In this document: piece by piece, positions 11,625 to 37,437 of the stretch
Numbering within the stretch: the stretch's first letter is position 1
Layout: each line of letters opens with the position of its first letter
Source of the DNA: Bacteroidales bacterium
Lineage (GTDB): Bacteria; Bacteroidota; Bacteroidia; Bacteroidales; UBA932
Direction of reading: 5' to 3'
DNA length: 37,437 nucleotides
Assembly (NCBI GenBank): GCA_009784635.1
Contig: WRBG01000001.1
Coordinates: 1-37,437 of the forward strand
Notes under the pieces: model-generated
Told to the model about the DNA's origin: nothing
Seen by the model: the letters and a program-made list of their open reading frames with translations, nothing else
Databases searched by the model: none
Translations under genes and position numbers: made by a program

Positions 11625-11638
11625 CCGCTCCAAAAATT

Positions 11639-13418: not shown

Positions 13419-13436
13419 TACCCGCATTTCAGGCCG

Positions 13437-13464: not shown

Positions 13465-13476
13465 GGTCTGCAATAC

Positions 13477-13547: not shown

Positions 13548-13648
13548 CTAATCTTAGAGGTTACGCAAAAAGATTAGTTAACATAGCCCAAGACCCGCTT
13601 CCAAGGTTAAGGGTATATAACAACAGTACAAAATTAACATGTACCTAA

Positions 13649-13843
13649 ATGAACAAAATTAAAACGTATCTCAAAGACTCATACAACGAGTTGGTACACA
13701 AAGTAACTTGGCCGACTTGGGCTCAGCTGCAAAGCAGTGCGATTGTGGTGATGATTGCTTCGGTCATTTTTGCCGCGGTCATTTTTGCGATGGACGTTGT
13801 GTTTAGAACCATTATGACCAACATTTACAACATGTTGTACTAG
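13649..13843 (+). CDS. secE: Preprotein translocase subunit SecE
   Basis: 64 aa with a single C-terminal TM helix (AIVVMIASVIFAAVIFAMDVVF), in the conserved position immediately upstream of nusG. Confidence 0.85.
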   Translation: MNKIKTYLKDSYNELVHKVTWPTWAQLQSSAIVVMIASVIFAAVIFAMDVVFRTIMTNIYNMLY

Positions 13844-13857
13844 TAAAAGAGCAAGTA

Positions 13858-14406: not shown

Positions 14407-14418
14407 ACAATTAACATT

Positions 14419-14865
14419 ATGGCTAAAGAAATTGCCGCATTTATAAAATTACAGATTAAAGGCGGTGCTGCAAACCCCTCTCCTCCGGTAGGACCGGCGT
14501 TGGGTTCCAAGGGCGTAAATATCATGGATTTTTGCAAGCAATTCAATGCAAGAACTCAAGATAGGGCCGGTAAAGTTTTGCCTGTGATTATCACTGTATA
14601 CATTGATAAGTCCTTTAACTTTATCGTAAAGAATCCCCCCGTTCCCATCCAGTTGAAAGAAGCCGCCAAAATCCAGTCCGGTTCTCCCGAACCTAACCGG
14701 AAGAAAGTAGCTTCTGTAACATGGGCGCAGGTTCGTCAGATTGCCGAAGATAAAATGCCCGACATGAATGCTTTTACGCTTAAATCGGCTATGAGCATGG
14801 TGGCAGGAACCGCCCGCAGTATGGGCATCAATGTAGAGGGCGCTTTTCCCCAAGATGTAACCTAA
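14419..14865 (+). CDS. rplK: 50S ribosomal protein L11
   Basis: 148 aa. [20 protein letters not shown] is the L11 signature. Confidence 0.97.
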
Positions 14866-14880
14866 AAATTTCATGCAGAA

Positions 14881-15582
14881 ATGAGTAAGCTGACAAAAAA
14901 ACAACAAACAGTATACGCTAAGGTCGAACCGACCCGGCAGTATAAGTTGGCCGACGCCTGCAAATTGGTAAAAGAGGTTTCTTATACCAAATTTGATGCT
15001 TCTGTTGACATTGCCGTGCGTCTTGGGGTAGACCCCCGTAAACCCAACCAAATGGTGCGCGGCGTAGTAACCCTTCCGCATGGTACGGGAAAAGTAACCC
15101 GCGTATTGGTACTCTGTACTCCCGACAAAGAGAGCGAGGCCCAAGCTGCCGGAGCCGACCACGTGGGATTAGACGACTACATCGAAAAAATCAAAGGCGG
15201 ATGGACCGATGTGGATGTGATTATTTGTACCCCTGCCGTTATGGCCAAGGTAGGTGCTATTGGTCGCATCTTAGGCCCCCGCGGTTTGATGCCTAACCCT
15301 AAAACGGGTACCGTAACCATGGAAGTCGGCAAGGCCGTCTCTGAGGTAAAAGCGGGTAAAATTGACTTTAAGGTAGACAAACAGGGCATCGTGCATACCA
15401 GCATCGGAAAGGTATCTTTCAGCCCCGAACAACTGTACGAGAACGCCCAAGAACTCTTGAGTACCGTATCGAAATTAAAACCCTCGACCCTAAAAGGCAC
15501 TTATATGAGAAGCATCTACCTGTCCGCGACCATGGGCCCCGGTATCAATGTAGACCTTAAAATAACCGGTGCCGCCGAATAA
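14881..15582 (+). CDS. rplA: 50S ribosomal protein L1
   Basis: 233 aa. L1 family motifs [17 protein letters not shown] and [15 protein letters not shown]. Confidence 0.97.
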
Positions 15583-15594
15583 AATGAGAAGATT

Positions 15595-16116
15595 ATGCGA
15601 AAAGAAGATAAAACACTGATTATTGAAAATTTGGCAAAACAAATAAGCCAAACGCCTAATTTTTACATAGCGGATATTTCAGGATTAAATGCCGAGAAAA
15701 CGGCCAAATTACGTCGGGAGTGTTACTCTAAAAACATCACCTTGATGGTGGTGAAAAACACTCTGCTGCGTAAGGCTTTGGAGAAAACGGAACATACAGA
15801 AGCCACCCAGCTCTTTCCTATTTTGGAAGGCCCTACTTCTGTACTCTTTACCAACACTGCAAACCTGCCGGCCAAGCTCATCAAAGAGTTTGGAAAACAA
15901 TACGGCAAGCCTGTTCTGAAAGGAGCCTACTTGCAAGAGTGTGCCTACATTGGCGCACAACATCTTGATGCATTGGTCAATATCAAATCCAGAGAAGAAC
16001 TCATCGGGGATATTGTGGCCATGCTTCAAACACCTGCCCGCAACATTATCTCTGCCCTTACATCCGGCGGAGCAAAACTTGCAGGCATTGCGGAAACCTT
16101 GGGTGAACGCAACTAA
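15595..16116 (+). CDS. rplJ: 50S ribosomal protein L10
   Basis: 173 aa, L10-like, in the conserved position between rplA and rplL. Confidence 0.93.
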   Translation: MRKEDKTLIIENLAKQISQTPNFYIADISGLNAEKTAKLRRECYSKNITLMVVKNTLLRKALEKTEHTEATQLFPILEGPTSVLFTNTANLPAKLIKEFGKQYGKPVLKGAYLQECAYIGAQHLDALVNIKSREELIGDIVAMLQTPARNIISALTSGGAKLAGIAETLGERN

Positions 16117-16154
16117 ACACTAAGATATTACAAACAATTTAAAACATAATCATC

Positions 16155-16529
16155 ATGGCAGATCTCAAAAAATTTGCAGAAGAATTAGTAAACCTCACGG
16201 TAAAAGAAGCTCAAGAATTAGCTCAAATTCTCAAAGACGAATACGGTATTGAACCCGCAGCCGCAGCTGTGGCCGTTGCTGCTCCCGCAGGCGGTGGCGC
16301 TCCTGTCGAAGTAGAACAAACACAATTCGACGTAATCCTTACACAACCCGGACAAGCTAAATTACAAATTGTTAAAGCTGTAAAAGAAATTACCGGTTTA
16401 GGCCTCAAAGAAGCCAAGGAATTAGTGGACGCTTATCCCAAGGCGATTAAAGAGAAGGTTTCTAAATCAGAAGCCGAACAGGTAAAGGCCCTACTTGAGG
16501 AGGCAGGCGGAGAAGTTGAAATTAAATAG
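16155..16529 (+). CDS. rplL: 50S ribosomal protein L7/L12
   Basis: 124 aa. Ala-rich hinge [16 protein letters not shown] and C-terminal domain [24 protein letters not shown]. Confidence 0.97.
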
Positions 16530-16560
16530 ACTACCTTCCCGATTGTCGGGAACGTAATGC

Positions 16561-16593
16561 AGGTTTAGAACCCGACGGGGTTCTAAACCTTTT
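16561..16593 (+). terminator. Strong hairpin plus T-run in the rplL-rpoB spacer (attenuator-type intrinsic terminator)
   Basis: Perfect 13-bp stem AGGTTTAGAACCC (16561-16573) / GGGTTCTAAACCT (16578-16590) with loop GACG, followed by TTT. A second 7-bp hairpin TTCCCGA-ttg-TCGGGAA lies at 16536-16552. Confidence 0.6.
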
Positions 16594-16629
16594 GCCGTAA
16601 CAGTTTATTTTTCAACTAATCCAAATAAG

Positions 16630-19600
16630 ATGTCCTCAAAAACAACGAATCAGCGTATTAGCTTCGCCACTTCCAAGACGCTTTTAGATTATCCCGACTT
16701 TCTGGAAGTGCAACTGAAATCTTTTAGAGATTTTTTCCAATTAGACACCACCCCCGAGAACCGGAAAAACGAGGGACTTTTCAATGTTTTTCAAGAGAAT
16801 TTCCCCATTACCGACACCCGCAACAATTTTGTTCTCGAGTTTATAGACTATTTTATTGACCCTCCAAGGTATACCATCGAGGATTGTTTAGAACGCGGAC
16901 TTACCTACAGCGTGCCCCTCAAGGCAAAGTTAAAACTTTACTGCACAGACCCCGAACACGAAGACTTTGATACGGTCATTCAAGATGTCTATTTGGGCAC
17001 CATTCCCTATATGACCCCCCGCGGTACCTTTGTCATCAACGGGTCCGAACGGATTGTGGTGTCTCAACTGCATCGTTCGCCCGGCGTATTTTTTGGACAA
17101 AGCATACACGCCAACGGAACCAAACTCTATTCTGCCCGCATCATCCCCTTCAAAGGCTCTTGGATTGAATTTGCCACCGACATCAACAACGTGATGTACG
17201 CCTATATTGACCGTAAAAAGAAATTGCCGGTAACTACCTTGTTGCGGGCCATTGGATTTGAAGGCGATAAAGACATCCTCGAAATCTTTGGCTTGGCCAA
17301 CGAGGAGCCGGTAAACGAAGCCAACCTCCAGCATTTGGTCGGAAGAAAATTAGCCGCCCGCGTGTTAAAATCATGGATTGAGGATTTTGTAGACGAGGAT
17401 ACCGGAGAAGTGGTTTCCATTGAGCGGAACGAGATTGTGGTAGACCGGGAAACTGTTTTGGAGCAGGAGCATTTGGATTTGATTCTCGAATCGGGAGCCC
17501 AAACCATACTGCTGCATAAAGAGGACGCCAACATCAGCGATTTCGCGATTATCCACAACACCCTCCAAAAAGACCCCTGCAACTCTGCTAAAGAGGCCGT
17601 AATCTACATTTACCGTCAATTACGTAACTCCGAACCTCCGGACGAAGCAACGGCTATGGACGTAATAGACAAGCTCTTTTTCTCCGACAAGCGCTACGAT
17701 TTGGGAGACGTGGGCCGTTACCGGCTTAACAAAAAACTGCATCAAGCAACCTCTCCCGAAATCAAGGTGCTGACCCGCGAGGACATTATCGCCATTATCC
17801 GCTACTTGATTCAACTCATTAATTCCAAAGCGATAGTAGACGATATTGACCACTTGAGCAACCGCCGGATTCGTACTGTGGGCGAACAGTTGGCCAACCA
17901 GTTCAGCGTAGGTCTTTCCCGCATGGCGCGCACCATTCGCGAGCGGATGAACGTGCGCGACAACGAAGTGTTTACGCCCATTGACTTGATTAATGCCAAG
18001 ACCCTTTCGTCGGTCATTAACTCCTTTTTTGGCACCAGCCAACTTTCCCAGTTTATGGACCAGACCAATCCGCTGGCCGAAATGACCCACAAACGCCGAC
18101 TCTCGGCCTTAGGCCCGGGAGGACTTTCGCGGGACCGCGCCGGTTTTGAAGTACGGGACGTACACTACACCCACTACGGACGCCTCTGCCCCATCGAAAC
18201 GCCGGAAGGCCCCAACATCGGTTTGATTTCTTCGCTTTGCGTCTATGCCCGGATTAACGACTTGGGCTTTATCGAGACCCCCTACCGTAAGGTAGACGGA
18301 GGAAAGGTAGACCTTAGCCCCAAAGGTTATGTGTATATGAGCGCAGAAGAAGAAGAAGACCAAATGGTGGCCCAAGCCAATGTACACCTTGACGACGAGG
18401 GCATCATTACCGACGAAAGGATTAAGTGCCGGTATGAAGCCGATTATCCGGTTGTCACCAAAGAAGATGTACACTATATGGACGTGGCGCCCAATCAGAT
18501 TGCTTCTATTGCCGCCTCGCTGATTCCCTTCCTCGAACACGACGACGCCAACCGCGCCCTCATGGGCTCCAACATGATGCGCCAAGCCGTTCCCCTAATC
18601 AGACCGGAAGCCCCCATAGTGGGCACAGGTTTGGAGGGGCCGGTAGTTCGAGACAGCCGCACCCAAATTAACGCCGAAAGCAAAGGCGAGGTAGTGTACG
18701 TGGACGCCAATGAAATCCATATAAAATACGAACTTTCCGAAGAAGACCGATTTGTAAGTTTTACCCCCGAAATTACCGTATACAGACTGCCTATTTACCG
18801 CAAAACCAATCAGAATACCTCTATCAACCTCAAGCCTTTGGTACGTAAGGGAGACAAGGTGGCCGCCGGACAGATTTTGACCGAAGGCTACGGAACCCAA
18901 AACGGAGAACTGGCCTTGGGCCGCAACCTCAAGGTAGCTTTTATGCCTTGGAAAGGGTATAATTTTGAGGATGCTATTGTTTTGTCGGAACGAATGCTCC
19001 GCGAAGACACCTTTACTTCTATACATGTAGACGAATACATCATGGAAGTACGGGACACCAAGCGCGGTATGGAGGAACTCACTTCGGATATCCCCAATGT
19101 GAGCGAGGAGGCCACTAAAGACCTCGACACAAACGGAATCATCCGCATCGGCGCCAATATTGAACCCGGAGACATCCTCATCGGTAAAATTACGCCTAAA
19201 GGAGAGAGCGACCCTTCTCCCGAAGAAAAACTTTTACGCGCCATCTTTGGAGACAAGGCCGGAGACGTGAAAGACGCTTCACTCAAAGCTTCTCCCTCAT
19301 TAAGGGGCACTATTATTGATAAACGCCTCTTTTCTCGCATTATGAAAGATAGTGTAAAGAAAGGAAGACATCTTTCCAAGGCCCAGCTTGCCCAAGCCGA
19401 CGAGGAGTTTAACAAGAAGGCGAACAAACTCAAAGACATATTTTTGCAAAAGATGGCAGTCTTGCTCAAAGGCAAAAACTCCCAAGGCGTACACGACCTC
19501 TATGGCGTGCTGATTATTCCCAAGGGCAGCGCCTTTGATGCTCAAGTTTTGGCGGGCTTGGACTACGAAAACATCAATCCGGTAAAGTGGACTTCGGACA

Positions 19601-20448
19601 AATCCATCAATAGTCTGATTAAAAAGCTTATCAACAATTATTTGATTAGCTACAAAGAATTGGATGCAGAACTCAAGCGAACCAAATACAACCTTACCAT
19701 CGGAGACGAGCTGCCTTCGGGTATTGTGCAATTGGCCAAAGTATATGTGGCCAAAAAGCGGAAAATCCGCGTGGGCGACAAAATGGCCGGACGTCACGGA
19801 AACAAAGGCATTGTAGCCAAGGTAGTGCGGGATGAGGACATGCCCTTCCTCGAAGACGGCAGCATCGTAGATATTGTGTTAAATCCTTTGGGCGTACCCT
19901 CGCGTATGAACTTAGGCCAAATTTACGAGACCGTATTAGGCTGGGCCGGTTCGGAATTGGGACTCAGATTCAGTTCCCCCATTTTTGACGGAGCGCGCTT
20001 AGAACAGATTACCTCTTACACCGAGCAGGCCGGTCTGCCCAAATACGGAAAGACCTACCTTCGCGACGGGGGCACGGGAGAATTGTTCGACCAGCCCGCT
20101 ACGGTCGGAATCATCTACATGCTCAAATTGGGGCACATGGTAGACGACAAGATGCACGCCCGTTCCATCGGTCCTTATTCGCTGATTACCCAACAGCCTT
20201 TGGGCGGAAAAGCCCAGTTTGGAGGCCAGCGTTTTGGAGAAATGGAGGTATGGGCCCTCGAAGCCTTTGGGGCTTCCAATATCTTGCAGGAAATCTTGAC
20301 GGTAAAATCAGACGATGTGGTCGGACGCTCCAGAGCTTACGAATCCATCGTTAAAGGCGACCCCATGCCTACTCCGGGAATCCCCGAATCGCTCAATGTG
20401 TTGCTTCACGAACTTAGGGGCTTGGCCTTGAGCGTAACTTTAGAATAA
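16630..20448 (+). CDS. rpoB: DNA-directed RNA polymerase subunit beta
   Basis: 1272 aa. Conserved beta-subunit blocks include [12 protein letters not shown] and [11 protein letters not shown]. Confidence 0.98.
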
Positions 20449-20480
20449 ATCTTACGAATGGCTAACAAATACGACAAATT

Positions 20481-23400
20481 ATGTCTTTCAAAAAAGAGAA
20501 CAAAATAAAAAGCAATTTCAGTAAAATTACCATCGGTTTGGCTTCTCCCGAAGAAATTCTGGAAAATTCCAAGGGAGAAGTGCTTAAGCCGGAAACGGTT
20601 AACTACCGTACCTATAAACCCGAACGGGACGGACTTTTCTGCGAACGCATTTTTGGCCCTTCTAAAGATTATGAATGTCATTGCGGTAAATACAAAAGGA
20701 TTCGCTACAGGGGTATTATCTGCGACCGTTGCGGCGTAGAAGTTACCGAGAAGAAAGTCAGGCGTGAACGCATGGGACACATCTCTTTGGTGGTTCCCGT
20801 AGCCCATATCTGGTACTTCCGCTCTACCCCCAACAAAATCGGATACTTACTGGGAATCCCCTCCAAAAAATTGGAAGGAATCATCTATTACGAACGCTAT
20901 ATTGTGATTCAAGCCGGCATCAAGGCTCAAGACGGCATTAAAGACGCCGACTTCCTGTCCGAGGACGAATACTTGAATATCATGGAAACCCTTCCACGGG
21001 AAAACCAGCTCCTTGATGACGACGACCCCAACAAGTTCATTGCCGGTATGGGCGCGGAAGCCATTTACAAGCTACTGGTTCGCATCAAATTAGATGAACT
21101 TTCCTATACCCTCCGCCATCGGGCCGACACCGAAACCTCCCAACAACGCAAAACAGACGCACTCAAGTGCCTCAGCGTGGTAGAGGCTTTTCGGGAATCT
21201 CGGGACATAAACCGGCCGGAATGGATGGTGTTAAAGGTCGTTCCCGTTATTCCTCCCGAACTCCGCCCCTTGGTTCCGCTTGACGGAGGCCGCTTTGCCA
21301 CCTCCGACTTGAATGATTTATATAGAAGGGTGATTATCAGAAATAATCGCTTAAAACGCTTGATTGAGATTAAAGCGCCGGAGGTTATTTTGCGGAACGA
21401 GAAACGGATGTTGCAAGAAGCGGTGGATTCGCTTTTTGACAACTCCCGCAAATCCAACGCCGTAAAAACCGAGGCCAACAGAACCTTAAAATCTCTGTCG
21501 GACAGCTTAAAAGGCAAGCAGGGACGTTTTCGCCAAAACCTCTTGGGTAAAAGGGTGGACTATTCTGCCCGTTCCGTAATCGTAGTAGGTCCGGAACTCA
21601 AGATGCACGAGTGCGGTTTGCCCAAAGATATGGCCGCCGAACTCTACAAACCGTTTGTAATCCGTAAATTAATCGAGCGGGGCATTGTAAAGACGGTAAA
21701 GTCGGCCAAAAAAATCGTAGACCGTAAAGACTCCATGATTTGGGACATTTTGGAAAATGTCATGAAAGGACATCCCGTGCTTTTGAACCGCGCCCCTACC
21801 CTCCACCGCTTGGGAATCCAAGCATTCCAGCCCAAATTGATAGAAGGTAAAGCCATTCAGTTGCATCCCCTTTCCTGTACGGCCTTTAACGCCGACTTTG
21901 ACGGAGACCAAATGGCGGTGCATCTGCCTTTGGGAAATGCCGCCATCCTCGAAGCCCAACTGCTGATGTTAGGCTCCCATAATATCTTGAATCCCGCCAA
22001 CGGAGCCCCCATTACCGTGCCTTCTCAAGACATGGTGTTGGGCCTCTATTACATTACCAAGCCCAGAACCGGAGCCAAAGGCGAGGGCATGACTTTCTAC
22101 GGAACAGAAGAAGTCATTATTGCCTACAACGAAAAAGTGCTGGACCTCCACACCAAAATAAAAGTGCGGTTGCCCATTGACTTTTGCGACCCCGACAAGG
22201 GATACCATTTGGTAGATACCACCGTGGGGCGGATTATCTTTAATCGGGTGGTTCCCCCCGAAGTCGGCTATATAGACGAAGTCCTCACCAAAAAATCCTT
22301 GCGCGATATCATCAATCGGGTACTCAAAACCACAGGCGTGGCCAAAACCTCCCAATTCCTTGACGACATCAAGGATATTGGATACAATATGGCGTTCAAG
22401 GGAGGCCTTTCCTTCAATTTGGACGATGTAATCATTCCCGAAGAAAAAGTACAATTCGTCAAAGAAGGCTACGATTCCGTGGAAAACGTGATGTCGAGCT
22501 TTAATATGGGTCTGATTACCAACAACGAGCGTTATAATCAAATCATTGATATCTGGTCTTATACCAATACCAAACTCTCCGACACCGTACACAAGCAGTT
22601 GGAGCAGGACAAACAGGGATTCAATCCGGTATACATGATGCTCCACTCCGGTGCGCGGGGCTCCCAACAACAAATCCGTCAGCTTTCCGGTATGAGGGGC
22701 TTGATGGCAAAACCCCAAAAATCCGGAGCGACCAGCGCCGAGATTATCGAGAATCCGATTCTTTCCAACTTTAAAGAAGGTTTGTCGGTACTCGAATACT
22801 TCATCTCTACCCACGGGGCACGTAAAGGATTGGCAGATACTGCTTTAAAAACAGCGGACGCCGGCTACCTTACCCGCCGTTTGGTAGACGTATCCCACGA
22901 CGTAATCATCAACGAAGAAGATTGCGGCACCCTGCGCGGATTGATTGCCACCGCCATCAAGAATAAAGACGAGGTGGTGGAGTCCCTGTCGGAACGTATC
23001 TTGGGCCGTACCAGCGTACACAATCTCTACAACCCCTTAACGGGAGAGTTGATTGTGGAGGCGGGCAACGAGATTACCGAAGACATTGTGGCAACCATCG
23101 AGTCCCTCCCCATTGAACAGGTAGAAATACGCTCCGTGCTTACCTGCGAATCCCGCAAAGGGGTTTGCGCCAAATGCTATGGCCGCAACTTGGCCACCGG
23201 ACGCATGGTAGAAAAAGGAGAAGTGGTGGGCGTAATCGCCGCACAGTCTATTGGAGAACCGGGTACGCAGTTAACGCTCCGTACTTTCCACGTAGGAGGA
23301 ACCGCCTCTAACATTACCTCCGAAAACGAGATTATTGCCCGTTATGCCGGCGTGCTGGAAATCGAGGAACTCAGAACCGTTACCAAGGAAAGCGAAGACG

Positions 23401-24740
23401 GAACAAAAGTGCAGATTGTAATCGGACGTTCCGCCGAGATGCGGATTGTGGAAAAAACTACCAAAAGCACTCTGTCTCACCACCATATTCCTTACGGAGC
23501 CACCCTTTATTTTAAGGCGGGCGACGAAATCCAAAAAGGAGATAGAATCTGCGAATGGGATGCCTATAATGCCATTACCATTGCCGAAATCGAAGGTACC
23601 ATTGCTTACGAATCTCTTATTGAAGGCGTTACTTATCGCGAAGAGGCAGCGGACGAATACTCCCTCCACCGTGAAAAAGTGGTGTTTGAATCCCGCGATA
23701 AATCCCGCAATCCCGCCATCCGCATTATGGACGGCAAGACCGAGTTAAAGCAGTACAACCTGCCTGTGGGCGCCCATATTATGGTAGAAAACGGCCAAAC
23801 CGTTAAAGCCGGCAGCATACTGATGAAGATTCCCCGCGCCATTGGCAAGTCGGGCGATATTACCGGAGGTTTGCCCCGTGTTACCGAACTTTTTGAAGCC
23901 CGTAACCCCTCGAATCCCGCCATTGTCACCGAGATTGACGGAGAAGTGATTATGGGTAAAATCAAACGCGGGAACCGCGAAATTATGGTCCGCTCCAAGA
24001 CGGGAGAGGAGAAAAAATACTCTGTTCCCTTGTCCAAGCAAATTTTGGTACAGGAAAACGACTATGTTCGGGCCGGGTCTGCCCTTTCGGACGGAGCCAT
24101 TTCCCCCACCGATATCCTCTCTATTTTGGGTCCTACCAAAGTACAGGAGTACATTGTGAACGAAATTCAAGAAGTTTACCGGATGCAGGGCGTAAAAATC
24201 AACGACAAGCATTACGAAATCATTGTTCGTCAAATGATGCGCAAACTCGAAATCGTAGACCCCGGCGATACCCGTTTCCTTCCCGAACAAATGGTAGACA
24301 AATGGGATTTTATGCAGGAAAACGACTATATTTTTGACAAGAAAGTAGTCATTAATCCGGGCGATTCCCAGAGTGTTAAAGCCGGACAGATTATTACGGT
24401 AAGAAAGCTCCGAGACGAGAACTCTGTACTCAAACGCAAAGACCTTAAAGTCATCGAGGCAAGGGACGCCATGCCTGCCACCTCCAACCAGATTTTGCAG
24501 GGGATTACCCGAGCCGCCTTGCGTACCAACAGCTTTATGTCTGCCGCCTCCTTCCAAGAAACCACCAAAGTGTTGAGCGAAGCCGCCATTTTTGGCAAGA
24601 CCGATACACTCGAAGGCCTCAAGGAGAACGTAATCTGCGGACATCTGATTCCCGCCGGAACCGGAGCCCGCGAATACGAGCGCTTGGTGGTAGCTTCTCA
24701 AGAAGACTATAAACGCATGACCCAAACTAAGGGCAAGTAG
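20481..24740 (+). CDS. rpoC: DNA-directed RNA polymerase subunit beta'
   Basis: 1419 aa. N-terminal zinc motif [23 protein letters not shown] and the catalytic NADFDGDQM. Confidence 0.98.
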
Positions 24741-30167: not shown

Positions 30168-31487
30168 TTACTGTTCGCTAAAAATCTTCTTCAAAGGCAG
30201 GAACAGCCGCTCAAGCAGCCGCAGGTCCTCGGTAACGATTTCTGCCGTGGCATACATTTCTTGGTAAAAGGGCAATTCCCTGCCGTAGGTAGTCATCAGC
30301 TTATGGGGAAAACCGACTTCCAAGGTATAGAAGTCGCCCGAAGGCACTACCGAAATATTGCCCACCACGCCCCGCACAATGCCGTATTCCGTGTCGGGGA
30401 AATTCAAAAAACGGACATTGACCGACTGACCGGGTTTTACCTTGCCCGAGCCGGCAATAGGCAATTGGGCTTTGCCGACTATTTGTCCGGTGGTTTGGGG
30501 AATGATGGTAAAGACCGTTTCGCCGGCAGTGATGTTTTGGTTTACGTTCCAGAATTTGCTGACGTCCACCGTGCCGTCCACAGGCGTTTTGAGTACGTAG
30601 GTCATCTCCCATATATTAAAGGCGTTCATGAGGTTGTCCAATCCGGCTTTTACCTCTGCCTGCAACTGCCCCGATTTTTCCAACTCCTGCAACCTCAAAT
30701 CGAGGATGGATTGCCGTAACTGGTCAATTTGTATATGGGCGTTGTCCAAGGCTATTCGGGACGACTCCAAACCATACCTGCTTTGCAGGAAACTCATGAC
30801 AATGGCGTCGTGTTCTGCGTCCGAAATCATTTTTTGGACGTGTAGGCTTGAATCCCGTACATATTGCCGGTGCGCCAGCGCGTACTGTTGCTGCACTACT
30901 TGGTACTGCTTCTGTAGTTTCTCAAGGTATTGCTGCTGTTTCAAGATTTGTTCCTCCATGGCGGCAATCCGCCGAGGATAATAGTTTAGCTCGGCAAACA
31001 GGCGATAATGACCGGCCGCGCGGATAAAGCCCGTATAGGAAGCCTGTATGTCGCCCAATTCGTATTTGCGGTTAAGTTCGTCCGACGTAAAATGAATATG
31101 GTTGCCGCCCATCATCTCATGCCACGCCTCCAACTGCGCCCTCAACGCTCCAACGTCATCGCTGTTTGCCGGATTCTCAACCACAGCCAAATAATCGGAT
31201 GCTTGTACCGACTGCTTGTCTGTCACCAACATTCTGGTGATTTTGCCATTGACGCGGGCGTTGACCTGCACCGGCGGATTGTGGGATGTTACCAATATGG
31301 GCGCCTCAATAATGTCCGGATATTTATAGAACCAACTGCCTGCAAACAATGTAATTACTATTACAACCAGCACGCTAATCCCACTCCGTAATATCCAAGG
31401 CGGAACCCATCCCAATACTTCCTGTACTTCCTCGCTGCGGAGTTCGGGCAACTTTTTAACGCCTACTATTTCTTTCTTAGTTCCCAA
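30168..31487 (-). CDS. HlyD-family membrane fusion/secretion adaptor protein
   Basis: 439 aa. N-terminal TM helix (ISVLVVIVITLFAGSWF), a long Gln/Leu-rich coiled-coil middle and a beta-barrel-like C-terminus. The start overlaps the ABC gene end by 11 nt. Confidence 0.8.
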   Translation of the reverse strand: MGTKKEIVGVKKLPELRSEEVQEVLGWVPPWILRSGISVLVVIVITLFAGSWFYKYPDIIEAPILVTSHNPPVQVNARVNGKITRMLVTDKQSVQASDYLAVVENPANSDDVGALRAQLEAWHEMMGGNHIHFTSDELNRKYELGDIQASYTGFIRAAGHYRLFAELNYYPRRIAAMEEQILKQQQYLEKLQKQYQVVQQQYALAHRQYVRDSSLHVQKMISDAEHDAIVMSFLQSRYGLESSRIALDNAHIQIDQLRQSILDLRLQELEKSGQLQAEVKAGLDNLMNAFNIWEMTYVLKTPVDGTVDVSKFWNVNQNITAGETVFTIIPQTTGQIVGKAQLPIAGSGKVKPGQSVNVRFLNFPDTEYGIVRGVVGNISVVPSGDFYTLEVGFPHKLMTTYGRELPFYQEMYATAEIVTEDLRLLERLFLPLKKIFSEQ

Positions 31488-33681
31488 GTTCCAACTGATT
31501 TTTTACCAATTCATAATAAATGCCGCGCCGGTTGGCCAACTCTTCGTGCGTGCCCTGTTCGGCAACCTTTCCCTTGTCTAATACCACAATGTTGTCCGCA
31601 TTCCGAACAGTGCTTAGGCGATGCGCCACCACCACCACCGTCCTGCCTCGGTAAAACTTTTCGAGCCGCTCCATAATTTCCCGCTCATTCTTTGCGTCGA
31701 GCGAATTGGTGGCTTCGTCAAAGAAAATAAACTCCGGATTCTGATACACCGCACGGGCAATCAGAATGCGTTGTCGCTGCCCTTGACTTATGCCGTTGCC
31801 TTCCATACCGATTTTGGTATTGTAGCCCAAGGGAAGGGCGTCAATAAAATCCCCGATGTTGGCCATGGAGGTCGCCTCTACCAACCGTTCCTTATTCATA
31901 AGTTCGTCGCTCACGGCAATATTGTTGGCAATGGTATCCGAAAAAATGAAGCCGTCTTGAAGCACCGCCGCCGTTTTGGCCCGCCACACATGGGGGTTGA
32001 TGTTCTGAAGGCTTGTTTCTCCGATTTTGATGCTGCCCTTATTGGGCGGATAAAACCCCAGCATGAGCTTTACCAATGTGGTTTTTCCACTCCCGCTGGC
32101 CCCCACAATAGCCGTTACGCGGTTCTGCGGAACCGTGAGGCTGATGCCGTCCAACACATAATCGCGGTCGGCGCCGTCATAACTGAAATACAAGTCGTTG
32201 ATATGAATGGACTTGTCCTTGGGCAAGGAAGTCATGCTTGCGGCGCTTTGCTGGTCTTCGTCCTGTTTCAAATGCACTTCGCCCAAGCGTTCAAGGCTGA
32301 TTTTTGCATCCTGCCAAGCGCGGGCAAAACTGATAAACTGCTCGATGGGCGCGCTCACCTGTCCCACTATATAGGTCAGCGACATCATCATTCCAAGGGT
32401 CATCTGCCCGTCCACCACCGCCTTGGCCGCAATAAACGAAATCAAGATGCCCGTAGTCTGTCCAAAAAATACCGACCCCAATTGCTGGTACTGACCCAAC
32501 GCCATACCTTGTATACTGATTTTAAATTGCTTAACCTTAATGCGCTCCCATTCCCAGCGTTTTTGTTTCTCGCAATTGTTGAGTTTGATTTCCTGCATTC
32601 CGGTAATCAATTGCACAATATTACTCTGATTGGCAGACGCTTGTGCAAAACGCTTAAAGTCCAATTTGCGACGCCAGCGCATGAACGACAGCACCCAAAG
32701 CACATACAGCGTATTCCCGACCAAGAACACCATCAATACCATCAAGTTATAATACGCAAGGATGGCGCCGAAGACGAAGAAGTTGAACAGCGAAAAGATG
32801 ATGTTGAACGACGAACCGGTAAGGAAGGATTCAATGCGCCCATGGTCGCCAATCCGCTGCATAATATCGCCCACCATTTTTGTATCGAAGTAATTCATAG
32901 GCAACCGCATCAGCTTTGCCAAAAAATCCGATATAAGCGCTATGTTGATGCGGGTATTCATGTGGAGCATAATCCAACCGCGAATCAAATCAACCGAAAG
33001 CCGCGCCACAAACAGCACCAACTGCGCAATCAAAATCAAGGTGATAAAACTCAAGTTATGGTTGCGGATACCGTTGTCTACCAGCGCTTGGGTAAGGAAG
33101 GGGAAAATCATCTGCAACAAACTGCCCGCGAGCATGCCCAAGGCCAACTGTATCAACTGAGACTTGTAGGGACGCAGGTAGCGGAAGAAGAATCCAATAT
33201 TCTTATCATCAGCCTTTTTCTCATCGTCCATATCGTAAAACTCCGGCCCGGGTTGCAGGGCAAGCACCGTACCGCAATCTTTGCCCTCGACCTTGGTAAC
33301 GCCCCAGCAACGCATAAATTCTTTCTCGTTGTATGTCGCTAATCCGCGTGCAGGGTCGGCAACGTAGACCATGGTTTTACCTCCTTTGCGCTTTTTGACT
33401 TTATACACCACCACAAAATGGTTCTGATTCCAGTGGGCGATACAGGGCAAAGGCACATCGTTGCACAGTTGTTCAAAATTGATTTTCACCCCTGTGGTAC
33501 GGAATCCTATGGTTTCGGCCGCATCGCTGATGCCCAGCATACTCACGCCCTCCCGCGTAATAAAACTCCGCTGCCGCAGGGTTTGCAGGGTATAGCTGCG
33601 GCCATAATACTTGGCCACCATGCGCAGACAGGCAGGACCGCAGTCCATGGCGTCTAACTGGAGGGTAAAGGGAAAGCGCAT
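31477..33681 (-). CDS. Peptidase C39-containing ABC transporter (bacteriocin/double-glycine peptide exporter)
   Basis: 734 aa. C39 motifs QLDAMDCGPACL (catalytic Cys) and NHFVVVY (His). A six-helix TMD, then Walker A GASGSGKTT, signature ISQGQRQRI, Walker B IFFDEATNSLD and H-loop VAHRL. Confidence 0.92.
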   Translation of the reverse strand: MRFPFTLQLDAMDCGPACLRMVAKYYGRSYTLQTLRQRSFITREGVSMLGISDAAETIGFRTTGVKINFEQLCNDVPLPCIAHWNQNHFVVVYKVKKRKGGKTMVYVADPARGLATYNEKEFMRCWGVTKVEGKDCGTVLALQPGPEFYDMDDEKKADDKNIGFFFRYLRPYKSQLIQLALGMLAGSLLQMIFPFLTQALVDNGIRNHNLSFITLILIAQLVLFVARLSVDLIRGWIMLHMNTRINIALISDFLAKLMRLPMNYFDTKMVGDIMQRIGDHGRIESFLTGSSFNIIFSLFNFFVFGAILAYYNLMVLMVFLVGNTLYVLWVLSFMRWRRKLDFKRFAQASANQSNIVQLITGMQEIKLNNCEKQKRWEWERIKVKQFKISIQGMALGQYQQLGSVFFGQTTGILISFIAAKAVVDGQMTLGMMMSLTYIVGQVSAPIEQFISFARAWQDAKISLERLGEVHLKQDEDQQSAASMTSLPKDKSIHINDLYFSYDGADRDYVLDGISLTVPQNRVTAIVGASGSGKTTLVKLMLGFYPPNKGSIKIGETSLQNINPHVWRAKTAAVLQDGFIFSDTIANNIAVSDELMNKERLVEATSMANIGDFIDALPLGYNTKIGMEGNGISQGQRQRILIARAVYQNPEFIFFDEATNSLDAKNEREIMERLEKFYRGRTVVVVAHRLSTVRNADNIVVLDKGKVAEQGTHEELANRRGIYYELVKNQLELGN

Positions 33682-33700: not shown

Positions 33701-34477
33701 TTAGGAACGCGAAGATAGGAATTTTATTTGGATTTCCTGTTTTGAGCTGCTTTCTGTCTTAAATCGTTCGTACGATGATATTCTTTTTTGTGCAGATGAG
33801 GCAAACGAACTGTTCATCGCCCTTGGATGCGAGAGGTGGAATAAGCACGTATCTACCCAATGTGTCTTGAAACCAAGCCGTTCAAAGCGATAGCACCTGT
33901 CAAAATCATCGTCTCCCCAGCCGTAGTGCTTTTCATTTTCCATGCCTGCGTAGATATATTTCTCCCTGTTTACCAATACCGCCCCCCCGACCAAACTACG
34001 GTGGTGCAGTAACTCCATTTTGTCCATATGCCGATAAAGAACGCGGATATCCTTTCGCTTCATAAAAAGAGTGCGGAGTATTTCGGATGTATTGTAACAT
34101 GTTCCATTATACGGCCAAGCAACATCTGCCGTTTGGTTGCGCAGCATAGTTACCGCTTCAAGTACTGCTTTCTTGTCTACCACCACATCGGTATCCCAGA
34201 TGGCTATGTACGGAGTGGCTACATTAGGCGTCATGGCGTTAAAACGCCGCGTCTTGTACAGCACGGGGTCTTTATCTTCTTTAAACAGATAGTTTATTTT
34301 TCTGTTTAGCAATCTTTTAAGAACTTGATTATTGTAACCGGATGCTTCAACTACAGTTACATTCGTGTCGAAATACTTGAGCAAGGCCTCCGTTACCGTT
34401 AGCGTATTTTCTAATCGTTGTACCGAATCAAGCCGTACCAAAATGAGGAATGTTATGTCCTTTAAATCTACCTTCAT
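33701..34477 (-). CDS. GT-A fold glycosyltransferase, beta-1,4-galactosyltransferase-like (GT2/GT7C-type motifs)
   Basis: 258 aa from the internal Met MKVDLKDITFLILV. DxD motif IAIWDTDVVV, and HYGWGDDDFDRCYRFERLGF resembles the WGxEDDD..R block of beta4GalT-type enzymes. The track ORF start at 34531 would overlap the upstream gene. Confidence 0.65.
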   Translation of the reverse strand: MKVDLKDITFLILVRLDSVQRLENTLTVTEALLKYFDTNVTVVEASGYNNQVLKRLLNRKINYLFKEDKDPVLYKTRRFNAMTPNVATPYIAIWDTDVVVDKKAVLEAVTMLRNQTADVAWPYNGTCYNTSEILRTLFMKRKDIRVLYRHMDKMELLHHRSLVGGAVLVNREKYIYAGMENEKHYGWGDDDFDRCYRFERLGFKTHWVDTCLFHLSHPRAMNSSFASSAQKRISSYERFKTESSSKQEIQIKFLSSRS

Positions 34478-34482
34478 ATCTT

Positions 34483-35949
34483 TTACGCATGTTTTGATTT
34501 TGCATCGGTTAGCGCCATGAATACACCGCAAAGTCCGGAAAACAGCCCTCTATTCCGCATCAAGTACTCCGGTTCGCGTTCCACTAAAGTCCATATATCA
34601 GACGATTCTATCTTGTCGATTATTTTGGTGGTCCATTGCTGCACATCATTTTCCGAAAAGTATTTTTGCAAGGCAGACAGCAACAGGTAGACTCCGGAAG
34701 CACCACCGTCTATGTAGATATTCCTGCTCCTTAATTCTTCATCAAGAATCATATTGACGTCGAGCCTGTCTTTAAGCAGTTGGATATGACTACTCCATCC
34801 GCCTACATCAATGTGCCGCATTACCGAATCCATACCCCACATCAAGAACAATCGGTTGGCATGAAGTCGTGGGAGCATAGACAGCACGTACATGCCGACA
34901 TCTTCCAATATCTTAACTATGCGGTAATTATAAAAATTTAACTCATATATCCTGCCAAGCACAAACAGAAATTGTGGCAACAGGTAGTTAAATCCGTAAA
35001 GTGGCGGTTCTTCAAAAAATGAAGCATCTGCTTTTTGATAGATATGGTTTACCGTTGCAATTATCAATTCTCGATAGAGGTACTCCGATTCGCTTCCCTC
35101 CTTTTGGTCATTAATCCGGAGGCACAAGTAATATAGAATCTGAATGAGTGACAGTGAGTTGATATTGTCCAAGTAAATTGAATAGCTCAACTGCTTGAAT
35201 ATCGCATTATCCACATCGCCAAGTATCTCGTTGGGACTCCCTTTGGCGTGGGACTCCTTTAGCAGGTAGCGAATAGCCAGCCCTATTCCCGCCAATCCAT
35301 TCATCAGATCTATACTCCTTGTTTGAGAGGCCTCATTAAAAACCTCCTCCAACAGGTTTTCGGCTACTTCCTGATACTTCTTGTTCTTTTCATGCCTCGC
35401 CAGCCAAAAGGCAAAGAGGCAAAAGCCCATTTTCCCGTTTGCCAAGCCTAAGGGGGCATCTTGGCTAAAGGAACTCATTAGGCGGTCCTTTAACGAAGGT
35501 GTTTCCAATAGTTGGTAGTGCGCAGCATCCCACCCAATTCCGAATTGATTCAATGGTTTCCATGCCCCTCCCCATTCAAGCCCTGCTTCGATACCCAGTC
35601 GACCAAAGGAAAGCCACAATTGGGCATTTTCCTCGGTAATCGCCCAAGGGATACTGCCATCGGCTAATATCGGTACAATATCGGCAGCAACTCCGTCTTG
35701 GTGAAGAGTGTGTCTAACTTTTGTAATAATTTGTTTCGCTTTTTCTGCGTCAAGTAAGTGCAGTCCAGCTATTTTGCGAAGACGGTTGATTTCTTCTATG
35801 CTCTCCCTGCCTTGGGCGTAATAAGCATCTTGAACTTCTTGTGTGCGAATGGTTTCAAGAATAAGGTATCGCAATCCGTTCCTGTCAAGCACAGAAAGAA
35901 ATGCTTCAAATATCGGTTGCGCTTCTGGCTTTAATAAATTGATTTTCAT
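34483..35949 (-). CDS. Fusion protein: N-terminal M15 (VanY/endolysin-type) zinc peptidase plus C-terminal LanC-like alpha/alpha-repeat domain
   Basis: 488 aa. The N-terminal ~150 aa carry ETIRTQEVQ, the H-x6-D motif TLHQDGVAADIVP, WGGAW and GWDAAHYQL, a complete M15 zinc ligand set. The C-terminal ~320 aa carry spaced Gly-rich helix starts resembling LanC repeats: GLANGKMGFCLFAFWL, NGLAGIGLAIRYL, DGGASGVYLLLSAL and GLFSGLCGVFMAL. The canonical CHG zinc motif was not found. No signal peptide. Confidence 0.55.
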   Translation of the reverse strand: MKINLLKPEAQPIFEAFLSVLDRNGLRYLILETIRTQEVQDAYYAQGRESIEEINRLRKIAGLHLLDAEKAKQIITKVRHTLHQDGVAADIVPILADGSIPWAITEENAQLWLSFGRLGIEAGLEWGGAWKPLNQFGIGWDAAHYQLLETPSLKDRLMSSFSQDAPLGLANGKMGFCLFAFWLARHEKNKKYQEVAENLLEEVFNEASQTRSIDLMNGLAGIGLAIRYLLKESHAKGSPNEILGDVDNAIFKQLSYSIYLDNINSLSLIQILYYLCLRINDQKEGSESEYLYRELIIATVNHIYQKADASFFEEPPLYGFNYLLPQFLFVLGRIYELNFYNYRIVKILEDVGMYVLSMLPRLHANRLFLMWGMDSVMRHIDVGGWSSHIQLLKDRLDVNMILDEELRSRNIYIDGGASGVYLLLSALQKYFSENDVQQWTTKIIDKIESSDIWTLVEREPEYLMRNRGLFSGLCGVFMALTDAKSKHA

Positions 35950-37235
35950 AACATAATTACTCCAAATTGAGAGGAAAACACTATAGTACTGCTAATACTA
36001 TTATAGTCACTGTACATTATAAGCCCTTTACGCAGCATTATACGTGCATATCGCTGAATATGAAGGTGTAGATTTTTTTGTAACTGTTCCGTTTTGAGCA
36101 AGAGCGCTTCATAAAAATGCTTTGGGCGTGGGATGATATAAGTAAGTACCAAACTTTCGGTCAGAGAAAGTTCGGAATATGGCTTGCCAAAGTAAAGCAG
36201 GCTGGCATGATGCAGTCCATATACATTGGGGGCAAACTCAATCAAGTTCAAATACAATTCTAAAATATCTTCTTTTTCTATCTTGAAATAGTTCTCTATC
36301 AACAACGCAATCACACACTCTTCCACCTTGCGAAGTATGTTCTTATCATGGTTAAGAAAAAGATTTCGTACCAATTGCATAGTGATGGTGCTGGCGCCTC
36401 TCTCGAATTTCATGCTGTTGAAGTTGGCCAATAAAGCAAGGTCGATGCCATAAAGATCTATTCCTTTATGAATCCCAAAATTGGGGTCTTCCGTACATAT
36501 TACGGCATTGGCTACATGCTCCGGAATCGTTTTGTAGGGAATATAGCCTTCAGCTGTAAAATAGCTGCCGCCGTGTTTGGCAAAGAGGGTATTGAGTAGA
36601 AATTGCTTGTCAACTTGGACACTATTTTCGTGGGTTAGCTCAAAGTCATCCGCTTTTATGGAAGCATTAAACCAAACCGGCTGCGCACTATTTTTAGCGT
36701 AAGCAAGGATAGCATTGATTAGCAGGGGAATATCCGAATAGAAATTTTGGAGATGGCTAAATATCAAGTTATCACCCATGATAGAAATGTATTTGTCCCA
36801 ATTTAAACTTAACTCAGAAAATACTTTTATTTGTCCGGCCTTTCGCTGAGTTTGTACTATTAACATTATTTCGTTGGCTTCAATATGGATAGTTGCATTT
36901 TTTCTATTGACTCCGAGGGTAATAAGAATATCCGATAATGCAAACTTCTTTTTAGCAATAATTTCCCAATTTGTGCTAAAGTGCTCAACCATAATCTCTC
37001 CTACCAACCAGCCCCCGGTTATGCTTTGCCATAAAGACAACTTGAAGATTATACGTTCTACGCGGACTATCTCTTTCTGTTCACGGCTGGTTATAACCAC
37101 ATTACTTAACAGCAACTTTCTAAGACCAAGCAGACGTACTGTTTGAACGGAAACGGAAAGCCCAAACCTGCCTAATAGTCGTGTAGACAATGATTGAATA
37201 CGTGAGGAGATTTTATGTTCGAGGTAACACTTCAT
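35946..37235 (-). CDS. Atypical GT51 (peptidoglycan glycosyltransferase) domain protein with an unknown ~230-aa N-terminal domain
   Basis: 429 aa. From about residue 233: IPEHVANAVICTEDPNFGIHKGID (EDxxFxxHxG), RGASTITMQLVRNLFL (GGSTITQQ) and RKVEECVIALLIENYFKIEKEDILELYLNLIEF (RKxxE...ILE.YLN). Both GT51 catalytic Glu positions appear present. The N-terminal region has no motif I recognise and no clear TM anchor. A 4-nt ATGA overlap with the downstream gene. Confidence 0.65.
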   Translation of the reverse strand: MKCYLEHKISSRIQSLSTRLLGRFGLSVSVQTVRLLGLRKLLLSNVVITSREQKEIVRVERIIFKLSLWQSITGGWLVGEIMVEHFSTNWEIIAKKKFALSDILITLGVNRKNATIHIEANEIMLIVQTQRKAGQIKVFSELSLNWDKYISIMGDNLIFSHLQNFYSDIPLLINAILAYAKNSAQPVWFNASIKADDFELTHENSVQVDKQFLLNTLFAKHGGSYFTAEGYIPYKTIPEHVANAVICTEDPNFGIHKGIDLYGIDLALLANFNSMKFERGASTITMQLVRNLFLNHDKNILRKVEECVIALLIENYFKIEKEDILELYLNLIEFAPNVYGLHHASLLYFGKPYSELSLTESLVLTYIIPRPKHFYEALLLKTEQLQKNLHLHIQRYARIMLRKGLIMYSDYNSISSTIVFSSQFGVIML

Positions 37236-37250
37236 TTTTCCATGCCGCTA

Positions 37251-37437
37251 TTACTCTTTACTCTCCCGCGCCTTTTTAGACTTGTAATGTTTTAGCAAAA
37301 AGTCATATACCACCGCCTCGTGCATACGTTGTTTGCTGCGGAACCAGCGGTTCATCATCATGTGGGTGTAGCTCGATAACAGGGCATTGAGCTTTTCGCC
37401 TTTTTCTACATGCTCCATGATTTGACCGGCAATCGGC
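37251..37437 (-). CDS. 3' end of an unidentified CDS entering from the right edge
   Basis: Hand translation of the minus strand in the frame ending at TAA (37253-37251) gives PIAGQIMEHVEKGEKLNALLSSYTHMMMNRWFRSKQRMHEAVVYDFLLKHYKSKKARESKE with no internal stop. It is absent from the track only because the remaining Met-initiated part is under 60 aa. It lies 15 nt upstream of the GT51 gene. Confidence 0.4.
   Translation of the reverse strand, partial: PIAGQIMEHVEKGEKLNALLSSYTHMMMNRWFRSKQRMHEAVVYDFLLKHYKSKKARESKE

Follow-up and report, generated by a model that had tools for sequence, protein, structure and literature searches.

What might a peptidoglycan peptidase do at the head of a LanC-like toroid, within a protein that carries no sign of export? 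The question is raised by a minus-strand gene of a Bacteroidales bacterium, located close to the end of contig WRBG01000001.1 (assembly GCA_009784635.1, positions 1 to 37,437; these 37,437 nucleotides are called the window in the following). A sequence-only reading had described the gene product as an unusual fusion of an intact M15 zinc peptidase to a LanC-like repeat domain without the canonical zinc site. Here, we find that the M15-LanC-like open reading frame (ORF) is a real gene fusion that is restricted to one lineage. The fusion event alone is modest. Its interest lies in the module it reveals within a cluster for peptides that are made by the ribosome and modified post-translationally (RiPPs). 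The respective minus-strand operon reads split LanB, GT51 transglycosylase-like protein, M15-LanC-like fusion, GT-A glycosyltransferase, C39 ATP-binding cassette (ABC) exporter and HlyD protein. Coordinates are compiled in Table 1.

All motifs named by the sequence-only reading are present, i.e., TLHQDGVAADI (H83-x6-D90), WGGAW (126-130) and WDAAHY (D141-x2-H144) within the M15 domain as well as GLANGKMG (168-175), NGLAGIGLA (217-225), DGGASGVY (414-421) and GLFSGLCG (468-475) within the toroid. The AlphaFold2 model of the fusion protein, computed from a 61-sequence alignment, is of high confidence with a mean predicted local distance difference test (pLDDT) of 94.8 and a predicted template modelling score (pTM) of 0.79. 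It shows a mixed alpha/beta N-domain (pLDDT 90-98), a lower-confidence linker at about residues 150-170, where the lowest values of the model are found (78-79), and an all-helical C-domain. The absence of a signal peptide is in line with the hydropathy of the ORF: no 19-residue window reaches a Kyte-Doolittle value of at least 1.5, while the same scan gives clear transmembrane peaks for the ABC and HlyD proteins of the operon.

When scanned against Pfam, the protein matches LANC_like above and Peptidase_M15_4 just below the respective cut-off. For the latter (E 8.9e-5), the 23.4 bits are 1.6 bits short of the threshold of 25, which is passed by the 71-74% identical M15 domains of proteins P0028 (31.2 bits) and P0030 (26.5 bits). 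Among solved structures, only L-Ala-D-Glu peptidases are matched by a profile that combines this domain with close homologues, led by Ply500 (1e-8) and followed by 8q2g, LysB4, ChiX and T5 Lys. The structural ranking for the N-domain agrees, i.e., Foldseek places Ply500 (2vo9, TM-score 0.59 normalised to target) and LysB4 (6akv, 0.58) above LdcB and VanXYc. Within 21 close M15 homologues, R35, Q40, H83, D90, D141 and H144 are invariant, and so is A45-Q46-G47-R48, which belongs to the N-terminal R...Q...YAQGR substrate-binding motif. This motif and the catalytic D141 align to the Ply500 sequence GYRSTAEQNALYAQGR. In the alignments, H83 and D90 coincide with the corresponding His and Asp residues in ChiX, Ply500 and 8q2g, and H144 with the His of 8q2g. 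Judged by its residues, the N-domain is thus predicted to be an intact M15C L-Ala-D-Glu peptidoglycan peptidase. That is, of the fold assignment originally offered, VanY/VanX or phage endolysin, profile search and Foldseek retain the intact M15 domain and the phage L-Ala-D-Glu branch but not the VanX/VanY branch. A D-Ala-D-Ala peptidase of VanX/VanY type is ruled out, since all solved relatives at the sequence level are L-Ala-D-Glu enzymes.

The phage kinship of the M15 domain is close. Within PHROGs, it falls into endolysin families, and its nearest relatives are stand-alone proteins of about 150 aa with 55-74% identity. M15 genes from Mu-like phage contigs are 68-73% identical. In the two phage-contig contexts examined, the M15 gene is preceded by the gene of a Mu F-like head protein on one side and bordered on the other by the genes after it, in L011/L012 a Mu-like prohead protease. 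This indicates that the domain was probably taken from the endolysin lineage of Mu-like phages in recent times. Since it shares about 70% identity with the phage genes but only 25-30% with the M15 domains of widespread GT51-M15 fusions (see below), a phage endolysin seems to have replaced an older M15 domain in the fusion lineage. A prophage lysis cassette within the window is ruled out by gene context, i.e., a lanthipeptide-type RiPP operon beside POR, GDH and rpoBC. The operon contains no holin-like ORF.

For the C-domain, Pfam LANC_like matches residues 166-316 clearly (E 4.7e-12, 45.6 bits vs. a cut-off of 23.2), spanning only the first ~150 of the 350 profile positions. The ten best Foldseek matches are LanCL2, LanCL1, MadC and GCR2 (E 4e-5 to 1e-4, target-normalised TM-score 0.54-0.57). 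Toroids of glycoside hydrolases and polysaccharide lyases are found only at E ~0.2, namely the GH105 structure 4wu0 (E 0.16, TM-score 0.40) and 5noa (E 0.24, TM-score 0.42). A glycoside-hydrolase-like toroid is therefore ruled out, given its ranking behind the LanC family, and the suggested LanC-like fold is borne out by both methods. The GxxG helix starts are represented by the conserved glycines G172, G175, G218, G221, G472 and G475. When aligned to a canonical Bacteroidota LanC with hhalign, only the first ~100 residues, i.e., the first two repeats, can be matched (94% probability), while the C-terminal two thirds of the domain are not alignable by sequence.

The claim that the Cys/Cys-His zinc ligands are missing is upheld as well. 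The fusion protein has three cysteines only (177, 276, 474). No Cys or His is invariant in the 28-sequence family alignment, and none of the columns from 164 family members reaches 85% Cys or His, the maxima being C177 (0.75) and H388 (0.67). The canonical LanCs of loci L015 and L102, on the other hand, carry WCYG and CHG. Since the ligand positions cannot be mapped by profile alignment, the absence of the zinc site is a statement about the family-wide lack of conserved Cys and His. Likewise, no His is conserved in the 164 sequences, while the region of the active-site His (general acid/base, GxxHGxxG) is not alignable to canonical LanC. The polar residues conserved instead are D247, Y274, R278, N301 and E405. 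Among solved or curated sequences, the nearest relatives are the cyclase domains of class III LanKC enzymes. The relation is weak, with a PDB match of E 4e-4 over 85 residues and 32.8 bits for NCBIfam lanthi_synth_III (cut-off 575).

With its zinc-less LanC fold, the C-domain is part of a large protein family of Bacteroidota. In a 50%-clustered library, this family counts 363 representatives at a threshold of E<=1e-30 and 1835 when the threshold is relaxed to E<=1e-10. All but one of 74 loci from species-representative genomes are from Bacteroidota, and the closest LanC-like protein is encoded in a metagenome-assembled genome of Prevotellaceae. That LanC-like proteins of Bacteroidales radical-SAM RiPP clusters lack the zinc motif was noted bioinformatically in 2023, when such proteins were reported never to be found with LanB and a resemblance to endoglucanases was proposed (PMC10352776). 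Going by the modelled fold, the endoglucanase suggestion is not supported for the family. Independently of the window, locus L069 of Ancylomarina salipaludis (9899-16105) encodes a 395-aa LanC-like protein without WCxG/CHG beside two precursors and a split LanB, with neither a companion GT-A nor a canonical LanC in view. This protein may be a metal-independent class I cyclase.

Next to its domains, the fusion itself has to be explained. The architecture was claimed to be rare and uncharacterised, and a search of 5.8 billion clusters yields just two other proteins that combine M15 and LanC-like domains, P0001 (74% identical) and P0002 (62%), both in the same synteny and without any annotation that we could find. 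M15 domains occur in none of the 150 best LanC-like family representatives, and none of the 74 genome loci shows the fusion. Elsewhere, M15 is either encoded by a gene of its own before the LanC-like gene or fused to the preceding GT51 or DUF1796 protein. In L007 and L088, where the two genes are not fused, the M15 frame ends with ...HYQL(R/L)xx-stop, and a spacer of 20-30 nt leads to the LanC-like start. The three fused genes have an in-frame linker exactly at this stop/spacer point, and its sequence differs in each of them. The fusion therefore corresponds to a loss of stop codon and spacer. That is, from these junctions it is best seen as a shifted gene boundary between co-operonic partners and not as a new catalytic invention. 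An assembly or frameshift artefact is ruled out by the three diverged contigs with different in-frame linkers.

These relatives also reveal that the usual fusion partner of the M15 domain is the upstream GT51 protein. The catalytic motifs of the latter are invariant in 48 homologues, and its modelled GT51 domain resembles the respective domain of the Aquifex penicillin-binding protein (PBP) 1a with a Foldseek TM-score of 0.85, such that the enzyme looks active as far as motifs and model can tell. Its beta-rich N-domain of ~215 aa has no confident PDB neighbour in Foldseek (best: JlpA, E 0.05; LptD, E 0.12). The first ~80 GT51 homologues listed have in common an N-terminal stretch of this length followed by GT51, and almost all of them lack transmembrane-like peaks (5 borderline exceptions in the Kyte-Doolittle scan). 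Pfam labels computed beforehand assign M15 to roughly thirty of the 120 GT51 homologues listed. Other additions are Amidase_3 (P0226, P0228), Amidase_2 (P0230, P0282, P0292) and a PgdA-type deacetylase (Polysacc_deac_1; P0225, P0232). P0225 directly adjoins the fused P0001, i.e., this cluster holds both deacetylase and M15. Wherever the order was resolved by sequence, the additional domain comes after GT51, and the domain in this C-terminal slot is peptidoglycan-directed throughout (M15, Amidase_2, Amidase_3 or Polysacc_deac_1). The substrate class of M15 would thus be the stem peptide of N-acetylmuramic acid (MurNAc), for which these fillers are the best available evidence. In L101, LanC-like, GT-A and GT51-M15 are encoded by overlapping genes, and extra GT2 genes flank GT51 in L002, L006, L100 and L102.

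Two observations on the family stand on their own. The anchorless GT51 proteins (window gene and homologues P0224-P0304) form a sizeable family with interchangeable C-terminal domains in RiPP clusters. Furthermore, P0028 (L007 1196-2398, L008 468-1670) fuses a phage-type M15 domain, 74% identical to that of the window, to an N-terminal DUF1796 papain-like domain; encoded between GT51 and the LanC-like protein, it represents a third fusion state of the M15 module.

The steadiest companion of the LanC-like protein is the GT-A glycosyltransferase. We compiled a census of 38 genome loci with a strong LanC-like match, where a GT-A gene (~255 aa) is found immediately downstream in 29 loci and within 10 kb in 33. 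A C39 ABC exporter is present in 21/38, and radical-SAM or pseudo-radical-SAM maturases (TIGR04149/TIGR04150 system) in 7/38. LanB (1/38), GT51 (2/38) and M15 (0/38) are rare or missing. The GT-A protein has an invariant DxD as well as a GWG..D motif, and its best solved relatives are beta4GalT7 and beta4GalT1. In P0176 and P0183, an N-terminal DUF707/DUF3405-type (GT-A-like) domain is fused to the LanC-like domain. The GT-A of the window also matches the phage family phrog_15655, whose function is not known, over nearly its full length (E 2e-38), i.e., a homologue circulates in phages.

Precursors with Gly-Gly leaders, which have in common a leader of type MKKLxKLKLN...GG and cores rich in Cys, Ser and Thr, are encoded near many LanC-like loci. 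In about 10 loci, e.g., L024 and L020, the LanC-like/GT-A pair has precursors nearby and no LanB or radical-SAM maturase was found by hidden Markov models, each of which was built from single LanB and radical-SAM sequences; from this arrangement, the pair presumably acts on peptides. A minimal cluster of this kind is seen in Dysgonomonas capnocytophagoides DSM 22835 (L024 9929-13350), which consists of a zinc-less LanC-like protein, GT-A, a frameshifted S41 peptidase and a precursor with the core YDISNNNSHSTCSCTYKNNSLSLTNSNSVSGCECTCTSH; no LanB or radical-SAM gene lies within 10 kb by the profiles used. In Bacteroides heparinolyticus DSM 23917 (L021), the pair is accompanied by an adjacent GT51 gene. 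In L015 (14579-19129), a canonical zinc LanC (WCYG, CHG), a precursor and a split LanB are located ~4 kb from a zinc-less LanC-like/GT-A pair. Given this canonical LanC beside LanB, cyclising LanB products cannot be the general role of the pair. A canonical LanC and a fragmented LanB also occur near the GT51-M15 gene of L102 (15749-16948), where the profile search gave no zinc-less LanC-like protein. Genes for six-bladed beta-propellers (DUF5128/DUF4933/DUF4934) adjoin LanC-like/GT-A loci of two distant lineages, Rikenellaceae and Aliifodinibius (L004 534-5432; L033 6060-7298 and 14640-15893).

Taken together, a network of fusions ties four activities to each other: GT51-M15, DUF1796-M15 next to LanC-like, M15-LanC-like and GT-A-like-LanC-like. 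As a tentative reading, for which we see somewhat less than even chances, GT51, M15, GT-A and LanC-like would form one cytoplasmic tailoring line that equips an exported peptide with sugars and a unit derived from lipid II. That is, the LanC-like toroid would bind the leader-bearing peptide and, in LanB clusters, might also close thioether rings without metal, like the class III cyclase domains. GT-A would place a sugar on the peptide, to which GT51 would move GlcNAc-MurNAc-peptide (GlcNAc, N-acetylglucosamine) from lipid II at the inner membrane face. The tethered M15 domain would trim the stem peptide at the L-Ala-D-Glu bond, before C39 ABC/HlyD would remove the leader and export the product. 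No signal peptide or membrane anchor was seen for GT51 or the M15-LanC-like protein in the Kyte-Doolittle scan. The trimming enzyme varies among otherwise orthologous clusters, which is the pattern expected of product diversification, and the proposed line accounts for every component as well as for this variation of the trimming domain.

Several points weigh against it. The module occurs with radical-SAM as well as LanB maturases, which would fit a generic immunity or export role too. The canonical LanC beside LanB in L015 makes the zinc-less protein dispensable as a cyclase there, and L102 combines canonical LanC and LanB with a GT51-M15 gene. Most LanC-like/GT-A loci have neither M15 nor GT51, so that both are optional, and the precursor gene is outside the window. 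To our knowledge, GT51 enzymes have been shown to use only lipid II as acceptor, which makes a peptide-linked sugar unprecedented in this role. Finally, a cytoplasmic L-Ala-D-Glu peptidase could destroy wall precursors. We infer substrate assignments and step order of the tailoring line rather than observe them.

The main competitor, which we consider unlikely, is self-protection of the producer. Here, the peptide would target lipid II or peptidoglycan synthesis, while GT51 and hydrolase bind, consume or edit the cell's own precursors at the inner membrane face; the fusion to LanC-like, a biosynthetic neighbour, would be coincidental. Parallels would be the resistance genes of VanY/VanX type in glycopeptide clusters or a resistant copy of the target, a pattern that a transglycosylase copy in a biosynthetic cluster fits. 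Self-protection also agrees with a module that is independent of the maturase type (radical SAM or LanB), as is usual for immunity and export genes, and with the PgdA-type deacetylase variant, given that this class of peptidoglycan modification is known to be protective. However, a GT51 protein without anchor or signal peptide cannot replace a periplasmic enzyme, and the closest solved M15 relatives cut L-Ala-D-Glu and not D-Ala-D-Ala. Such cuts in cytoplasmic precursors would block wall synthesis instead of re-programming it. Self-protection furthermore leaves unexplained the coupling and fusions with GT-A and LanC-like, as well as the absence of GT51 and M15 from most clusters that have this leader and exporter.

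Less probable still is a combination of cyclase and passenger, in which LanC-like is the metal-independent cyclase for the LanB product and M15 and GT51 serve phage-derived wall remodelling or lysis. The sacculus would be opened for ABC/HlyD export or product release, as by ChiX in chitinase secretion, and the fusion would be mechanistically meaningless. The available stretches of L003, L006 and L103 indeed show LanB and no canonical LanC, and the best sequence matches of the toroid are the metal-independent LanKC domains of class III. The ~70% identity to M15 of Mu-like phages and the presence of ChiX among the solved relatives fit as well. Yet neither holin nor signal peptide nor another route to the periplasm is visible for M15 and GT51, and GT51 is a synthase, not a lytic enzyme, with catalytic and pyrophosphate-binding motifs kept. 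Moreover, the LanC-like/GT-A pair is common in clusters without dehydratase and found beside canonical LanC in L015.

A bolder claim is also improbable in our estimate, i.e., that either a four-part RiPP system grafts a lipid-II-derived muropeptide or glycan onto its product in the cytoplasm, or LanC-like and GT-A form thioether rings via glycosylation of Ser/Thr. In the second case, glycosylation could provide the activation instead of glutamylation or phosphorylation.

We further regard it as quite improbable that the proteins constitute a polymorphic cell-wall toxin, with beta-rich domain and GT51 for targeting or delivery, the variable C-terminal hydrolase as the toxin, and the toxin domain moved onto the next ORF in the fusion lineage. 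A constant N-terminal region with an interchangeable peptidoglycan-degrading C-terminus does resemble polymorphic effectors, and so does the swap of one M15 lineage for the phage lineage (25-30% vs. ~70% identity). Nevertheless, neither protein has a secretion signal or an N-terminal Gly-Gly leader, no immunity gene adjoins them, the peptide exporter is the only secretion system encoded there, and we know of no C39 ABC exporter that carries folded proteins of 50-70 kDa.

A slightly smaller chance is given to M15 acting on the ribosomal peptide itself, i.e., cutting next to a D-configured or dehydrated residue while the toroid presents the substrate. The peptidase is tethered to a LanC fold, and solved LanC-fold proteins bind peptides, as in the crystal of LanCL1 with a peptide containing dehydrobutyrine (Dhb). 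In opposition, the invariant residues of the M15 group are kept, its only solved sequence relatives are L-Ala-D-Glu muropeptidases, and the swap partners at the GT51 C-terminus (MurNAc-L-Ala amidases, sugar deacetylase) cut no backbone peptide bond. Neither an epimerase nor a LanJ-type reductase is seen in the operon by Pfam annotation. Least of all do we expect a functionless read-through in a cluster under loss: related clusters are often flanked or interrupted by insertion sequence (IS) elements and frameshifts (L006, L102), but three sequences with no more than 62-74% identity retain the fusion, with both domains at full length and M15 catalytic residues and operon junctions intact.

Table 1. 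Features of the RiPP operon within the window.
Feature	Position	Strand	Evidence and remarks
HlyD-type membrane fusion protein	30168..31487	-	Pfam HlyD_3; one N-terminal transmembrane peak; overlaps ABC gene
C39-peptidase ABC exporter (peptidase-containing ABC transporter, PCAT) for Gly-Gly-leader peptides	31477..33681	-	Pfam Peptidase_C39, ABC_membrane, ABC_tran; NCBIfam bacteriocin-exporter models
Companion GT-A glycosyltransferase	33701..34477	-	258 aa from ATG at 34477; weak Pfam GT2, Glyco_transf_7C
M15-LanC-like fusion ORF	34483-35949	-	488 aa, ATG start; stop codon 34483-34485
Zinc-less LanC-fold alpha/alpha-toroid domain, residues 150-488	34486..35502	-	Pfam LANC_like, Foldseek
Short linker, about residues 149-157, LETPSLKDR	35479..35505	-	Junction comparison with L007, L088, L003
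Predicted M15C L-alanyl-D-glutamate peptidase domain, residues 1-148	35506..35949	-	Pfam, profile search, Foldseek, PHROGs
Anchorless GT51 transglycosylase-like gene	35946..37235	-	Pfam Transgly 3e-45; beta-rich N-domain 1-215, GT51 216-429
LanB elimination-domain gene, 3' end (Lant_dehydr_C)	37251..37437	-	Pfam 9e-10; cut by contig end

The genes of the operon are tightly packed: GT51 and the fusion gene share an ATGA stop/start overlap, and the latter is separated from GT-A by 5 nt. Both L003 and L103, which are syntenic, contain a complete split LanB (LanB_N, LanB_C), and an S41 peptidase lies upstream in these two and in L006, likewise syntenic. The precursor gene is not in the window, whose contig ends inside LanB; L003, L006/L087 and L103 are cut as well or start at an IS element. 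The S41 peptidase, of C-terminal processing type, recurs at the upstream cluster edge (L003 195-494, L006 130-846, L024 11774-13145) and may be a second processing protease besides the C39 domain of the exporter. PADLOC gave no match for the fusion protein, the GT51 protein or GT-A, which discards a known anti-phage defence system.

Over positions 34001-37437, i.e., the upstream half of the RiPP operon, the GC content is 0.38-0.44 compared to roughly 0.45-0.54 elsewhere in the window. This drop suggests that the operon may have been acquired horizontally. In L006, L100 and L102, IS or integrase genes border or break up related clusters. Beyond the operon, the window contains the housekeeping genes POR, GDH and rpoBC. 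A run of same-strand ORFs (13858-24740, plus strand) ends in products of 1272 aa and 1419 aa, the latter matching RNA polymerase Rpb1 domains, and resembles the conserved region of ribosomal proteins and rpoB-rpoC, which places the RiPP operon ~5 kb from core chromosomal genes. Antisense to the ABC exporter gene, a plus-strand ORF of 573 codons (31621-33342) encodes a His/Arg-rich, low-complexity product and is read as a shadow ORF, not a gene.

We found no published description of the M15-LanC-like fusion, of the zinc-less family directly after LanB, of an anchorless GT51 family with interchangeable hydrolase domains in RiPP clusters, or of a phage origin for this M15 copy. A literature search on transglycosylases or M15 in lanthipeptide and RiPP clusters, or on GT51 self-resistance, returned nothing relevant. 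Fusions of neighbouring genes are among the strongest signs of joint function that can be obtained from sequence only. The sister fusions described here link four activities that were not connected before, i.e., an anchorless peptidoglycan polymerase, a phage-type stem-peptide hydrolase, a beta4GalT-like glycosyltransferase and a metal-free LanC fold, embedded in peptide-export clusters throughout Bacteroidota, among them species of Bacteroides and Parabacteroides. For the role of zinc-less LanC-like proteins in Bacteroidales, noticed in 2023, the collected loci provide testable constructs, namely minimal clusters of pair and precursor as well as clusters with or without GT51 and hydrolase. 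If true, a decoration with wall-derived sugar would be new RiPP chemistry, while producer protection would amount to a new logic of self-resistance; both would clearly exemplify how a lysis enzyme of phages becomes domesticated in an operon for biosynthesis. Either of the bolder readings, grafting or ring formation via glycosylation, would imply that a peptidoglycan polymerase and a phage endolysin are re-used as enzymes of natural-product biosynthesis.

Finally, we compare the components to known systems. The M15 domain has fold, zinc and catalytic residues in common with phage-type M15C enzymes (Ply500, T5 endolysin, LysB4, Serratia ChiX, Bacillus CwlK) and, like endolysins, has no signal peptide. 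Unlike these, it is encoded in a RiPP operon, fused to a LanC-fold domain and without a holin nearby. With VanY/VanX of glycopeptide-resistance and producer clusters, which are a precedent for an M15 enzyme within an antibiotic gene cluster, it shares the M15 clan and the zinc-binding scaffold. Profile and sequence searches gave no sequence-level match to VanY/VanX enzymes, and LdcB and VanXYc are distant structural matches only (Foldseek E 0.013-0.1), behind the L-Ala-D-Glu enzymes. Compared to GT51 enzymes such as MtgA and the respective domains of class A PBPs, the GT51 protein of the window keeps all motifs and the fold. It differs from them by a beta-rich domain of ~215 aa in place of an anchor, by the lack of a transpeptidase, by the variable hydrolase domains of its family and by its location in a RiPP cluster.

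The C-domain has the alpha/alpha-toroid fold of canonical class I LanC (NisC, MadC) and of LanCL1/2, and its gene is found next to LanB, whereas the WCxG/CHG zinc ligands are missing and no His is conserved. A LanC fold without zinc ligands is also found in the class III LanKC cyclase domains (PDB 8sao/8sap, PMC10604976). In contrast to LanKC, the C-domain comes without lyase or kinase domains and in a class I (LanB) or radical-SAM context. It appears to be of the kind described in PMC10352776, given that its relatives are stand-alone proteins of ~340 aa without the C...CH zinc motif, and that both groups are found in Gly-Gly-leader clusters with (pseudo-)radical-SAM enzymes and glycosyltransferases. 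What sets the window gene apart from the proteins described there is that it follows a split LanB, carries an N-terminal M15 domain and has a predicted fold that matches LanC/LanCL, not glycoside hydrolases.

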